Source: Escherichia phage ECML-183-2
Sequence record: OL631481.1
Length of the DNA: 64,000 bases
Direction: 5' to 3' (one strand)
Shown here in pieces: positions 36,808-47,026 of the stretch. The notes beneath the pieces were generated by a model, which saw nothing but the letters and a program-made list of their open reading frames with translations, did no database searches and had not been told where the DNA came from. Position numbers and translations under genes: made by a program. Every line of letters starts with the position of its first letter. Position 1 is the stretch's first letter.

Positions 36808-36843
36808 TTGAAACCTCTTAAAAACAGATATCCCATAAATCTT

Positions 36844-36872
36844 AGTCTACAGGATATTTGTTGTTTTGTCAA
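36844..36872 (-). promoter_or_regulatory. sigma70-like promoter TTGACA-N17-TAGACT with AT-rich UP-like element
   Basis: Minus-strand -35 at 36867-36872, -10 at 36844-36849, AT-rich tract 36873-36900. Confidence 0.45.
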
Positions 36873-44888: not shown

Positions 44889-44925
44889 CTCCTCACTTCT
44901 AGTTTAGCACGAAGGATATCTTAAG

Positions 44926-45111
44926 TCAACTAGGAATAATTTTATCCTTTTTGGTTTCATAACCAGTCCAATCTAAATCCTCCCAGCCTTCATCATCGTC
45001 TAACACATTGTCATCATCATAAGATGCAATGTTATAAATAGAACGTGGATTACAAGACATACAATCTTTAATAGGCACATGATGCCATTTGCACGGATTC
45101 TCACTAATCAT
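44926..45111 (-). CDS. small hypothetical protein
   Basis: 61 aa; GGAGGTG RBS; acidic C-terminal half. Confidence 0.45.
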   Translation of the reverse strand: MISENPCKWHHVPIKDCMSCNPRSIYNIASYDDDNVLDDDEGWEDLDWTGYETKKDKIIPS

Positions 45112-45590
45112 TGCACACCTCCATTCTTGTTAAGATGTTTCGTACTGTACTTCATACTGATCTATAGATCAAGTATTATTTATAATAATTTATTATTTTA
45201 TTTTTAATTGATAGAAGTTGATCTGTACGTACCAGTTCTGATACACTGTACCTGTTTGTTAGATCTAATAATTATTTATTATTAATATTTAATAATTATT
45301 AATCTAGTACGGAGTACAGTACTTGAGTACAGAGTACTACATCAACAACCTAAAACCTTAACTCGCTGCGCTCGTTAATAGATTTCTAGGGTAGCATACT
45401 TCGAAGACAAAAGTCAAGAGTTTTATTAAAATTATTTTCTGTGTGCAAAAACCTTGCTTAAACAGGTAGCAATAGTATAGTCTATAACATAAGCTTCATA
45501 AGAAGCTCGTAGAGCAAGTTAACTTACTAGGTAAGGTGATTTACATCTTATATATAAAAAGTGCGTCAGAGACGCGTTTAGGAGGCTAGA
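45112..45590. promoter_or_regulatory. AT-rich divergent control region with GTAC-containing iterated motifs and AT-rich inverted repeat
   Basis: Ten GTAC cores within about 200 bp including AGTACGGAGTACAGTACTTGAGTACAGAGTAC; imperfect inverted repeat about 45260-45310. Confidence 0.4.
45454..45481 (+). promoter_or_regulatory. sigma70-like promoter TTGCTT-N16-TATAGT
   Basis: Plus-strand hexamers upstream of first early ORF (45591). Confidence 0.3.
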
Positions 45591-45914
45591 ATGAGATTTA
45601 CAAGACAAGAGGTGGTTGTGCTGGACGAAGCAATGACAATGATCGTCTTTTACTACGAGGATATCTTCTGTGCAGCATATCATTTAAATGACATTCAGAT
45701 TGAATGGCAGCAGATAGCATTCTTGTTGGACAAGAGTAATCATTTAGATGGCTTTGAGTATTTGGAATGGGATGGTGCAAAGGAAGTTAAAATTGTAGGG
45801 TTAAATCACGATCAGATTGTTGACATGCAATGTAAGTTGTGTCATTATCAGTTCTCAAACAAAGTCAAACTCGAAAGGCAATTGGAGGTGGTTAAAGATG
45901 ATAGCACTAATTAG
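45591..45914 (+). CDS. hypothetical early protein
   Basis: 107 aa; AGGAGG RBS. Confidence 0.55.
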   Translation: MRFTRQEVVVLDEAMTMIVFYYEDIFCAAYHLNDIQIEWQQIAFLLDKSNHLDGFEYLEWDGAKEVKIVGLNHDQIVDMQCKLCHYQFSNKVKLERQLEVVKDDSTN

Positions 45915-46014
45915 TGAGAATCCAGTCCTTGCAACAATTGTTCTGATTTTTGCCTTATGTGTGGTTCACGATATTCTGGTAAGCTATTTTGACAATAAAG
46001 GAGGTAAGAAATGA
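45898..46014 (+). CDS. small membrane protein (38 aa, one TM helix)
   Basis: ATG at 45898 after GGAGGTG; hydrophobic core VLATIVLIFALCVV; overlaps upstream stop. Confidence 0.35.
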   Translation: MIALISENPVLATIVLIFALCVVHDILVSYFDNKGGKK

Positions 46015-46205
46015 AAGACGTTATTCAAATGGTATTCCGTGTAACTCTAGATGGTATACACGTTGTTAAAGGCACACAGAACTACACAGAAGCGAAAGAA
46101 CACTTCTTAGAGTGGATTGATACACTGAAGACACAAGATGTGTCCTACAGCCGTGTTACGCTTACTGGCGACCATACCCCAATCATGGAGTACGTAAAGA
46201 AATGA
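46011..46205 (+). CDS. hypothetical early protein
   Basis: 64 aa; start overlaps upstream stop. Confidence 0.5.
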   Translation: MKDVIQMVFRVTLDGIHVVKGTQNYTEAKEHFLEWIDTLKTQDVSYSRVTLTGDHTPIMEYVKK

Positions 46206-46441
46206 GCAACTATCCAATTACAGGCGTAACCTATTCTTGTGTAGCAAAAGGTGGTTTATATACGGTAGTGGAATTTCCAAAACCTGCCGGAATATCTAAA
46301 GTGTTTGATCCTGTGGTTATCTATGAAGATCTTAGAACAGGTCAACGTTACTGGAGATTTGTGAATGACTTTTTAGATCGTATGGAGGTAGTAAGTGGCG
46401 AAAACACCGAAGAAGTTATCAAAGCCAAAGAACGTTACTAA
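46202..46441 (+). CDS. hypothetical early protein
   Basis: 79 aa; ATGA overlap. Confidence 0.5.
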   Translation: MSNYPITGVTYSCVAKGGLYTVVEFPKPAGISKVFDPVVIYEDLRTGQRYWRFVNDFLDRMEVVSGENTEEVIKAKERY

Positions 46442-46748
46442 GAAACAGAAAAACGAGGTTCTCAAAGTAGCCAAATCAGTTCCTAAGAAAGATAAATTTG
46501 ATACGGAGGCATTCGTCTTTGACACACCAATCGAGAAGATTGAAGAAGCGTTGCAACGTCTTGAGGAGCAGGAGGCAGATCCAATGGCTGAACCACTCAC
46601 GGCAGACCAAATTTATTGGTGGGGAATATGGACTTTGCAACTACCAGAAGCAAAACGAAGAGGAATGACTTCAGTTCCTACTTGTGCAAAAGAAGCGGCT
46701 GTGTTAGGTTTGTATGAGAAATCTAAAAAGAGGAGCAAAAAGAAATGA
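46395..46748 (+). CDS. Lys-rich hypothetical protein (GTG start)
   Basis: GTG at 46395 preceded by GGAGGT; overlaps upstream gene by 47 nt; alternative internal ATG at 46584. Confidence 0.4.
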   Translation: MAKTPKKLSKPKNVTKKQKNEVLKVAKSVPKKDKFDTEAFVFDTPIEKIEEALQRLEEQEADPMAEPLTADQIYWWGIWTLQLPEAKRRGMTSVPTCAKEAAVLGLYEKSKKRSKKK

Positions 46749-47026
46749 TCAAGACTTTCCTGAAGTGTGTAAAAGCAACAGATAATGAGTGGTACTCTGG
46801 ATTATTCACGGCTGGCAAGAAATACGAGATCCTCAACGGGACAGGCAAGAAGTTTTCTCTCGTTGTAAACGATGAAGGTACGAAGCAAATGGTATTTGCT
46901 GAAAGTTCTGTTTATGGTATTTTTGAAGTAGTGCAAGAAGGCTCTCCAATGATTCTGGAGTATCATGGCACTAATAAACCATATACTGCTATGGATGTTA
47001 TCAACAACAAGAGGAATGCAAAATGA
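46745..47026 (+). CDS. hypothetical early protein
   Basis: 93 aa; ATGA overlap. Confidence 0.5.
   Translation: MIKTFLKCVKATDNEWYSGLFTAGKKYEILNGTGKKFSLVVNDEGTKQMVFAESSVYGIFEVVQEGSPMILEYHGTNKPYTAMDVINNKRNAK

Follow-up and report, generated by a model that had tools for sequence, protein, structure and literature searches.

A putative compound promoter region with a clade-specific GTAC cluster between two opposed gene modules of Escherichia phage ECML-183-2

Introduction

Escherichia phage ECML-183-2 carries a 479-bp gap between two gene modules that are read in opposite directions. The gap was analyzed within a 64,000-nucleotide stretch of sequence record OL631481.1, which is referred to here as the window. 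The window derives from a Phapecoctavirus (a phAPEC8-like myovirus of the subfamily Stephanstirmvirinae); about 150 phage records match it at 95-99% identity, the best being ECO340P2 at 99%. Phapecoctaviruses, which have a place in therapy cocktails, rank high among large coliphages in frequency of isolation. Literature on rV5, the phAPEC8 group, the O177 phage, and the Pseudomonas 'polyvalent' phage is silent on the gap, on an origin, and on mapped promoters. No description of the gap was found in the literature searched; the kind of element is a known one.

A first-pass annotation, made from the window alone, had described the gap as an AT-rich divergent control region with GTAC iterons and an AT-rich inverted repeat, and had likened it to an origin or to an operator array for a phage regulator. 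Here, the gap is compared with the whole ~150-kb genome of ECO340P2 (99% identical) and with four further lineages: the phiWec188 clade, phi92-like phages, FKP3, and Tr1.

Results

The gap and its setting

The gap is flanked by a leftward open reading frame (ORF) of 61 residues (44926-45111) and a rightward ORF of 107 residues (45591-45914). The leftward block comprises the 61-residue ORF, two more small ORFs, ten tRNA genes, and structural genes, while the rightward block consists of small genes of unassigned function. Pfam searches with the ten flanking ORFs gave no hits, and PHROGs returned matches solely to groups of unknown function. An Rfam scan of 44000-46500 matched the tRNAs alone, with no RNA family within the gap. 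The full ECO340P2 genome has two divergent junctions, of which the gap is one; the other measures just 118 bp. The phage encodes a primase-helicase and a DNA polymerase. The features of the gap are collected in Table I.

Predicted promoters face both ways

A sigma-70 position-weight matrix (PWM) scan, calibrated on the whole genome, predicts promoters on both strands of the gap; all promoters named here are predictions of this kind. PL, PR1, and PC score roughly in the top 1e-4 of all genome positions, and represent three of just seven strong genome-wide hits with at least 85% A+T upstream. Between -40 and -60, the DNA upstream of PL and PR1 is 91-100% A+T, that of PL being 100%. Outside the gap, no strong promoter-like hit was found upstream of the first ~4.5 kb of rightward genes; the sole hit nearby is internal to the first gene.

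Equivalents of the junction were located in phiWec188 and phiWec179 (the sister Phapecoctavirus clade), in phi92-like phages, in Klebsiella phage FKP3, and in Citrobacter phage Tr1. The four-promoter layout recurs in phi92, phiWec188, FKP3, and Tr1 despite the divergence of the surrounding sequence, and is thus common to five lineages including the window. A PL equivalent lies beside the AT block in each of the four, PR1 occupies the same place in all five, and the PL and PR1 -35 hexamers are separated by 43-57 bp of nearly pure A+T throughout. As this is the right length for two UP elements, the intervening AT block 1 is read as a pair of back-to-back UP elements. The distance between the PR1 and PC -10 elements is 104-112 bp in the other four lineages versus 141 bp in the window, and beyond PC come one or two additional rightward promoters (PR2, PR3). 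PR3 has strong counterparts in FKP3 (TTGACA-17-TATCAT) and Tr1, and is weakened in the window by a 1-nt deletion that turns its -10 from TATCAT into TACATC. The term 'divergent control region' used in the first-pass annotation is borne out to this extent: sigma-70 promoters are predicted in both directions, at positions kept in five diverged lineages.

PL and PR1 share the -35 sequence TTGATC (45167-45172 and 45218-45223), which places a Dam site in each hexamer; PR1 of phiWec188 shares this arrangement, the other lineages do not. The methylation state of these sites could therefore modulate PL and PR1. Elsewhere in the genome, nearly all small genes of the 1-19 kb arm of ECO340P2 (piece L051, 1-18900) have a near-consensus promoter ahead of them (TTGACA-16-TAAAAT or similar), and several such promoters lie inside the leftward tRNA cluster of the window (42024-44929), for example TTGACT-17-TAAACT at 44929->44901.

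Table I. Features of the gap and related modules. Positions refer to the window unless stated otherwise; promoters are predicted, with spacer lengths in nucleotides
Feature	Position	Strand	Description and basis
Whole intergenic control region	45112-45590	strandless	ORF map and sequence; annotation of relatives ESCO13 and ECO340P2
PL	45144-45172	-	Sigma-70 type: -35 TTGATC (45172->45167), 17-nt spacer, -10 TACAGT (45149->45144); PWM 11.1
Palindrome GATCTATAGATC	45159-45170		Overlaps PL spacer and -35
AT block 1	45173-45217	strandless	45 bp between two -35 hexamers; 36-nt pure A/T run; all five lineages
PR1	45218-45247	+	-35 TTGATC, 18-nt spacer, extended -10 TGaTACACT; PWM 11.6
AT block 2	45258-45306	strandless	Imperfect AT-rich palindrome and tandem repeat, specific to phAPEC8 clade; fold and repeat analysis
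GTAC array	45306-45337	strandless	Five GTAC, run AGTACGGAGTACAGTACTTGAGTACAGAGTAC; holds copies of PL -10 segment
Short repeat CCTAAAACCTTAA	45349-45361		Copy number variable in close relatives; extra CCTTAAAA units in anhysbys and UP17
PC module	45362-45417	-	TTGACT-N15-TGcTACCCTA-N12-CGAGCGCAGCGAG; faces PR1; all lineages
PC	within 45362-45417	-	-35 TTGACT (45417->45412), 18-nt spacer, extended -10 TGcTACCCT (45393->45388)
PR2	45454-45481	+	TTGCTT-16-TATAGT; PWM scan; phiWec188 counterpart TTGTGT-16-TATAGT
PR3-like	45519-45547	+	TTAACT-17-TACATC; most relatives TTCACT-17-TATCAT; alignment A2
5'-leader hairpin GCGTCAGAGACGC	45563-45585	+	Followed by ribosome-binding site AGGAGG of first rightward gene; sequence
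PC-type module, gap copy	45362-45417	-	
PC-type module, second copy	ECO340P2 piece L051, 20705-20762	+	
PC-type module, third copy	ECO340P2 piece L053, 35852-35908	+	

A GTAC cluster in a GTAC-depleted genome

Ten GTAC tetramers fall within 196 bp of the gap (45142-45337), at 45142, 45147, 45225, 45229, 45248, 45307, 45314, 45319, 45327, and 45334. The ten cores described in the first-pass annotation are all present, as are the AGTACGGAGTACAGTACTTGAGTACAGAGTAC run, the GATCTATAGATC palindrome, and the AT-rich inverted repeat. Across the window, GTAC is seen 58 times versus 178 +/- 12 expected from shuffles, and its observed-to-expected ratio of 0.29 is the lowest among the 16 four-base palindromes; GATC, at 0.93, is not avoided. 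At least ten GTAC in 200 bp would be expected with a Poisson probability of ~1e-14, and none of 20,000 random placements gave more than five. The 150 kb of ECO340P2 contain 153 GTAC and no second cluster of at least five per 200 bp. Enrichment of GATC in the gap is modest (four sites in 110 bp, with seven such clusters genome-wide). The genome-wide avoidance of GTAC suggests long-term pressure from GTAC-specific restriction or other nuclease activity; no GTAC-specific restriction system was identified in this analysis.

Half of the cluster coincides with predicted promoter sequence. Two GTAC overlap the -10 of PL (GTACTGTAC, 45142-45150), two lie within the PR1 spacer (GTACGTAC, 45225-45232), and one (45248-45251) is directly downstream of the PR1 -10. 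The other five make up the array, which directly follows AT block 2 in the zone of predicted convergent transcription from PR1 and PC. One array segment, GGAGTACAGTAC, differs from the reverse complement of 45141-45152 at a single one of 12 positions, and another, GTACAGTAC (45314-45322), is an exact inverted copy of GTACTGTAC, the pair flanking both AT blocks. GTAC cores in the array are spaced by 7, 5, 8, and 7 bp, and the GTAC pairs of the cluster have spacers of 0, 1, 3, 1, and 3 nt. The longest direct-repeat families over the GTAC sites are two-copy matches of 11-12 nt, and Tandem Repeats Finder reports no array there. Folding of the array as a hairpin is not significant (z about -0.8 to -0.9), while the long-range RNA fold of the leftward transcript (z = -3.2) merely reflects the GTAC and AT palindromes.

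The AT blocks

Across the 150-kb genome, duplex stability reaches its minimum in the gap at window sizes of 50, 100, and 200 bp alike, 4.5-5 standard deviations below the mean. AT block 2 is the least stable 50-bp window and AT block 1 the second least stable, and the two longest pure A/T runs of the ECO340P2 genome (36 and 38 nt) are both found in the gap. The palindrome of AT block 2 is capable of forming a hairpin (DNA fold -7.6 kcal/mol, z = -3.5; none of 200 shuffles folds as well), and the same segment is a tandem repeat, with a 17-nt unit present 2.2 times (the unit may be counted as 7 or 17 nt). A 55-bp 'repeat_region' is annotated in the gap, without comment, in two other records. The 5'-leader hairpin ahead of the first rightward gene has counterparts of different sequence at the same place in phi92 and Tr1.

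Other AT-rich non-coding regions are present in the genome, one at ~12.6 kb of ECO340P2 and another in a gene-free stretch of ~1.8 kb spanning the terminal repeat. The third most AT-rich spot of the genome lies at ~36830-36870 of the window (ECO340P2 89825-89867); it contains a 31-nt A/T run and adjoins a TTGACA-17-TAGACT promoter-like site upstream of head genes.

The PC module

Predicted promoter PC belongs to a longer module that ends in the box CGAGCGCAGCGAG (45374->45362), about 8-20 nt past the predicted PC start. Within the clade, this is the most conserved part of the gap, with 2 of 56 alignment columns varying. All Stephanstirmvirinae checked have exactly three modules per genome with the consensus TTGACT-N15-TGsTACCCTAA-N8-15-CGAGCG-N1-2-AGCGAG, and the complete genomes of the subfamily in IMG/VR likewise have three each. 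Of the ECO340P2 copies, one is situated ahead of a gene, another is placed antisense inside a leftward gene block, and the remaining one is that of the gap. Unrelated contig families in IMG/VR that match the PC box were rejected as homologs, their number being close to the chance expectation for a pattern of 19-20 specified bases and variable gaps, as estimated with an assumed size of the collection.

The core of the box (CGA-GCGCAGC-GAG, with variants GCGAAGC, GCGATAGC, and GCGGGAGC) fits the GCGNAGC/GCGNNAGC motif, and across 14 copies the loop bases alone vary. Mini-hairpins of this family are known at the complementary-strand origins of G4, St-1, and alpha3, at RSF1010 ssiA, and at the N4 early promoters (PMC13037366). 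The bare motif is not enriched in the genome (23 seen versus ~26 expected), and nearest-neighbor folding of the PC box returns the expected topology with energies that are not significant. The box may be regarded as a lead toward a mini-hairpin rather than a demonstration of one. The module at ECO340P2 135651-136010 is oriented against the leftward genes around it. GATAGGTAA repeats lie ahead of this module and an ORF-free stretch of ~120 nt with several hairpins lies behind it; the module may represent a small RNA, an antisense promoter, or a priming site.

Conservation within and beyond the clade

Only the phAPEC8 clade has the GTAC cluster and AT block 2. GTAC occurs ten times in the gap and, at the equivalent junction, three times in FKP3, once in Tr1, and not at all in phiWec188 and phi92, and AT block 2 is absent from all four relatives. 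What the lineages have in common is the promoter scaffold, AT block 1, a modest enrichment of GATC/AGATCT, and the PC module. Conservation of the array in related phages, which the first-pass annotation had put forward as a check on its proposal, therefore ends at the clade boundary. Confinement to one clade also makes it probable that the cluster is not a conserved set of replication-origin repeats. AGTAT repeats of phi92 were considered as a homologous 'GTAY iteron' array and rejected, as they correspond to the -35, spacer, and -10 of phi92 PR1.

Variation inside the clade was followed in an alignment of window positions 45100-45600 with nine relatives (alignment A2). The GTAC cores show no excess conservation, with 9 of 40 columns varying versus 35 of 305 elsewhere. 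The AT blocks and the CCTTAAAA unit differ in length; two units of the GTAC array (15 nt) are missing from dw-ec, and 38 nt including the PL -10 are missing from EP57.

In BI-EHEC (OL505078.1), nine of the ten GTAC of the gap are altered. The changes extend well beyond it: against window positions 20538-63021, 17 of 33 GTAC read GTAT, ATAC, GCAC, or GTGC, versus changes in 2-10% of other tetramers. Insertions inside GTAC (TA-C to TATC, TATGC, or TATAC) also occur, one of which breaks the ORF at 46745-47026, and six of the nine correctly evaluated coding changes are synonymous. These changes are probably a systematic base-calling artefact at modified GTAC, the alternative being real purging of the sites. 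BI-EHEC had been considered as a natural experiment for the dispensability of GTAC, and was downgraded in view of the genome-wide spread of the changes and the ORF-breaking insertion; as the changes are possibly artefactual, they are not relied on here.

Discussion

On balance, we favor a reading of the gap as a compound, partly convergent promoter hub between two opposed modules, used by the host sigma-70 RNA polymerase. PL and PR1 would stand back to back, with the 45 bp of AT block 1 between their -35 hexamers serving both as UP elements. PC would fire leftward at PR1, ~127 bp away, and since the two face each other, the intervening stretch would be transcribed on both strands, such that the two directions may interfere. 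PR2 and PR3 would supply extra rightward starts. Five of the GTAC would belong to the PL and PR1 cores, where the predicted -10 hexamers begin with TAC (TACAGT, TACACT), and the remaining five would form a short array of duplicated PL -10 segments beside the clade-specific AT-rich palindrome. The array and AT block 2 are probably recent additions of the phAPEC8 clade, outside the conserved core of the hub, and at most may tune it, as -10-like decoys, pause sites, or sites for a clade-specific factor.

Several points weigh against a promoter hub. Literature searches turned up no transcript-mapping or start-site study of the phage subfamily. The core hexamers of the hub score ~11, versus 13-17 for many near-consensus TTGACA-16-TAAAAT promoters elsewhere in the genome. 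The persistence of ten copies of the most avoided tetranucleotide of the genome is not explained by promoters, nor is AT block 2, which adjoins no recognizable core promoter and, as the least stable DNA of the genome, resembles an expected unwinding element.

The origin suggested in the first-pass annotation was considered here in a transcription-activated form. The AT blocks would act as the unwinding element, transcription from PC and/or PR1 would open the duplex, helped by negative supercoiling between diverging PL and the rightward promoters, and a transcript or the phage primase-helicase would prime synthesis in the manner of T4 oriF/oriG or the T7 primary origin. On the displaced strand, the conserved box past PC could form a stable mini-hairpin and help priming. 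Such an origin would be compatible with the promoter hub but unsupported, and we consider it doubtful. What stands of the origin proposal is that the DNA of the genome that melts most easily, at all three window sizes, lies between predicted promoters, with PC and PR1 pointing into the AT blocks, in a phage that has its own primase-helicase and DNA polymerase. The fit of the PC box core to the mini-hairpin family of the G4, St-1, and RSF1010 ssiA priming sites (PMC13037366) also speaks for it, as does a related junction in the Seunavirus GAP31 that likewise has an AT block and tandem AGATCT repeats. That junction (piece L064, 1338-1617), the divergent counterpart of the gap in a different subfamily, contains an AT-rich block, tandem AGATCTTGTTTTT and AGATCTTATGTTTT resembling oriC 13-mers, and two 20-bp direct repeats. 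A 'replication initiation protein' annotated beside it in this Cronobacter phage was set aside as origin evidence; it is a small winged-helix protein (HTH_IclR, E = 1.6e-5; Phage_rep_O marginal, E = 0.017). On the other side, AT block 2 and the GTAC array are clade-specific, and a double UP element would account for AT block 1 in full. Pattern scans for DnaA boxes, 13-mers, IHF, and Fis sites do not rise above background: the gap has one relaxed DnaA box versus a background of 1.5 per 500 bp, no GATC-starting GATCTnTTnTTTT 13-mer, and one AGATCT. The ten flanking ORFs have no recognizable initiator domain, the other two PC-type modules of the genome lack an AT-rich block, the genome has further AT-rich non-coding regions, and the mini-hairpin motif is neither enriched nor significant in folding energy. 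The cumulative GC-skew minimum at ~45 kb coincides with the switch in gene orientation, and strand-corrected skew per gene block (0.109, 0.151, 0.075, 0.165, 0.178) does not match forks leaving the gap; in rV5, skew follows transcription and the origin is undefined (PMC3606486). A broader form of the same idea, in which the PC module and the AT blocks would be one of three transcription-primed replication start sites of Stephanstirmvirinae, is improbable. In this scheme, DNA would be opened by a sigma-70 promoter, the CGAGCG-N-AGCGAG box would fold on the displaced strand as a GNA-type mini-hairpin that stabilizes an R-loop or recruits the primase-helicase, and the palindromic GTAC array of the phAPEC8 clade, beside the unwinding element, would supply priming or initiator sites on both strands.

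An operator array would assign the GTAC-N-GTAC sites to a clade-specific phage or host protein that represses PL and PR1 and loops to the array ~170 bp away. The exact inverted copies GTACTGTAC and GTACAGTAC on either side of both AT blocks would suit such a protein, five GTAC overlap -10 or spacer elements of PL and PR1, and a cluster of ten sites in a GTAC-depleted genome suggests positive selection. However, the pair spacers are inconsistent, unlike those expected for the sites of a single dimeric protein, searches of the ten adjacent ORFs gave no DNA-binding domain, and the sites are not conserved outside the clade and no better conserved than their flanks inside it, with two repeats missing from dw-ec. 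The operator of the first-pass annotation thus survives solely as a site for a clade-specific factor, which we judge unlikely; resemblance to TrpR, LexA, and NarL sites was considered and dropped, half-site order or spacing being a mismatch. At the opposite extreme, the array and AT block 2 could be neutral by-products of duplication and slippage in a tolerant spacer, with no function of their own. This would account for an array built of PL -10 segment copies, a palindrome that is a 7- or 17-nt tandem repeat, the indels and copy-number changes among close relatives, and the absence of both features from the sister clade. Against it, more than 60 sequenced genomes (95-99% identity) retain the array and AT block 2, although these genomes are so close that retention weighs little, and genome-wide avoidance of GTAC should erode a functionless cluster; neutrality of both features has, in our view, only a slim chance of being correct. 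A genome terminus or packaging site, which might be supposed from the nieznany record (MN850598.1) that begins inside the gap, is excluded for practical purposes. Schickermooser has a 329-bp direct terminal repeat at its record ends (PMC6563267), verified here at 100% identity, which maps ~54 kb from the gap and has no match in the window, and the most likely cause of the nieznany start is an assembly break at a repeat of extreme AT content. Around the Schickermooser repeat, ~1.8 kb of DNA is free of genes and rich in repeats (runs of CAACAACC and GATAAC; compare ECO340P2 piece L051, 1-1198), and this region outside the window is another candidate for replication or packaging signals.

If the promoter hub alone holds, the gap is a phage control region of an ordinary type, with a GTAC cluster that is a curiosity of its clade; if an origin were also present, it would be the first for Stephanstirmvirinae. 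In either case, the gap is an obvious first place for promoter mapping, and offers a concrete, testable layout of PL, PR1, PC, PR2, and PR3.

Comparison with known systems

Like the iteron origins of lambda ori, P1 oriR, and theta plasmids, the gap combines short repeats with adjacent AT-rich DNA. The name 'iteron' given in the first-pass annotation does not carry over: the repeat unit is a 4-bp palindrome at a spacing of 5-8 bp, with pair spacers of 0, 1, or 3 nt, in place of phased direct repeats of 17-22 bp, no initiator gene is adjacent, and the repeats are not kept in relatives. T4 oriF and oriG consist of a middle promoter and a downstream unwinding element. To these, and to the T7 primary origin (promoters 1.1A and 1.1B with a 61-bp AT-rich region), the gap bears a likeness, in that predicted promoters would be aimed at an easily melted AT stretch and the phage carries its own primase-helicase and polymerase. 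It differs in that the promoters are of host type, depending on neither a phage RNA polymerase nor MotA, the nearest AT stretch is clade-specific, and GC skew gives no support. In contrast to known mini-hairpin DNA, the PC box is part of double-stranded DNA, a short way past a predicted sigma-70-type promoter, and its hairpin is putative.

The face-to-face arrangement of predicted PR1 and PC, 95-127 bp apart in five lineages, recalls pR/pL of coliphage 186, PR/PRE of lambda, and RNA I/RNA II of ColE1, with similar scope for transcriptional interference or antisense pairing. Unlike those systems, the window phage has a strictly lytic life cycle in which no switch protein is known, and the transcript overlap is predicted. 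For the predicted back-to-back sigma-70 promoters with UP elements, parallels are Escherichia coli rrn P1, T7 A1-A3, and the T5 early promoters. The predicted hexamers of the gap deviate from consensus (TTGATC; TACAGT, TACACT, TACCCT), and the gap has an extra AT block with no core promoter. The 17-18 nt spacing and the A+T-only DNA between -40 and -60 of both opposed promoters are nevertheless shared with this group, and, as in the T7 A1-A3 and T5 early clusters, several promoters would be stacked within a few hundred base pairs at the boundary of opposed modules.

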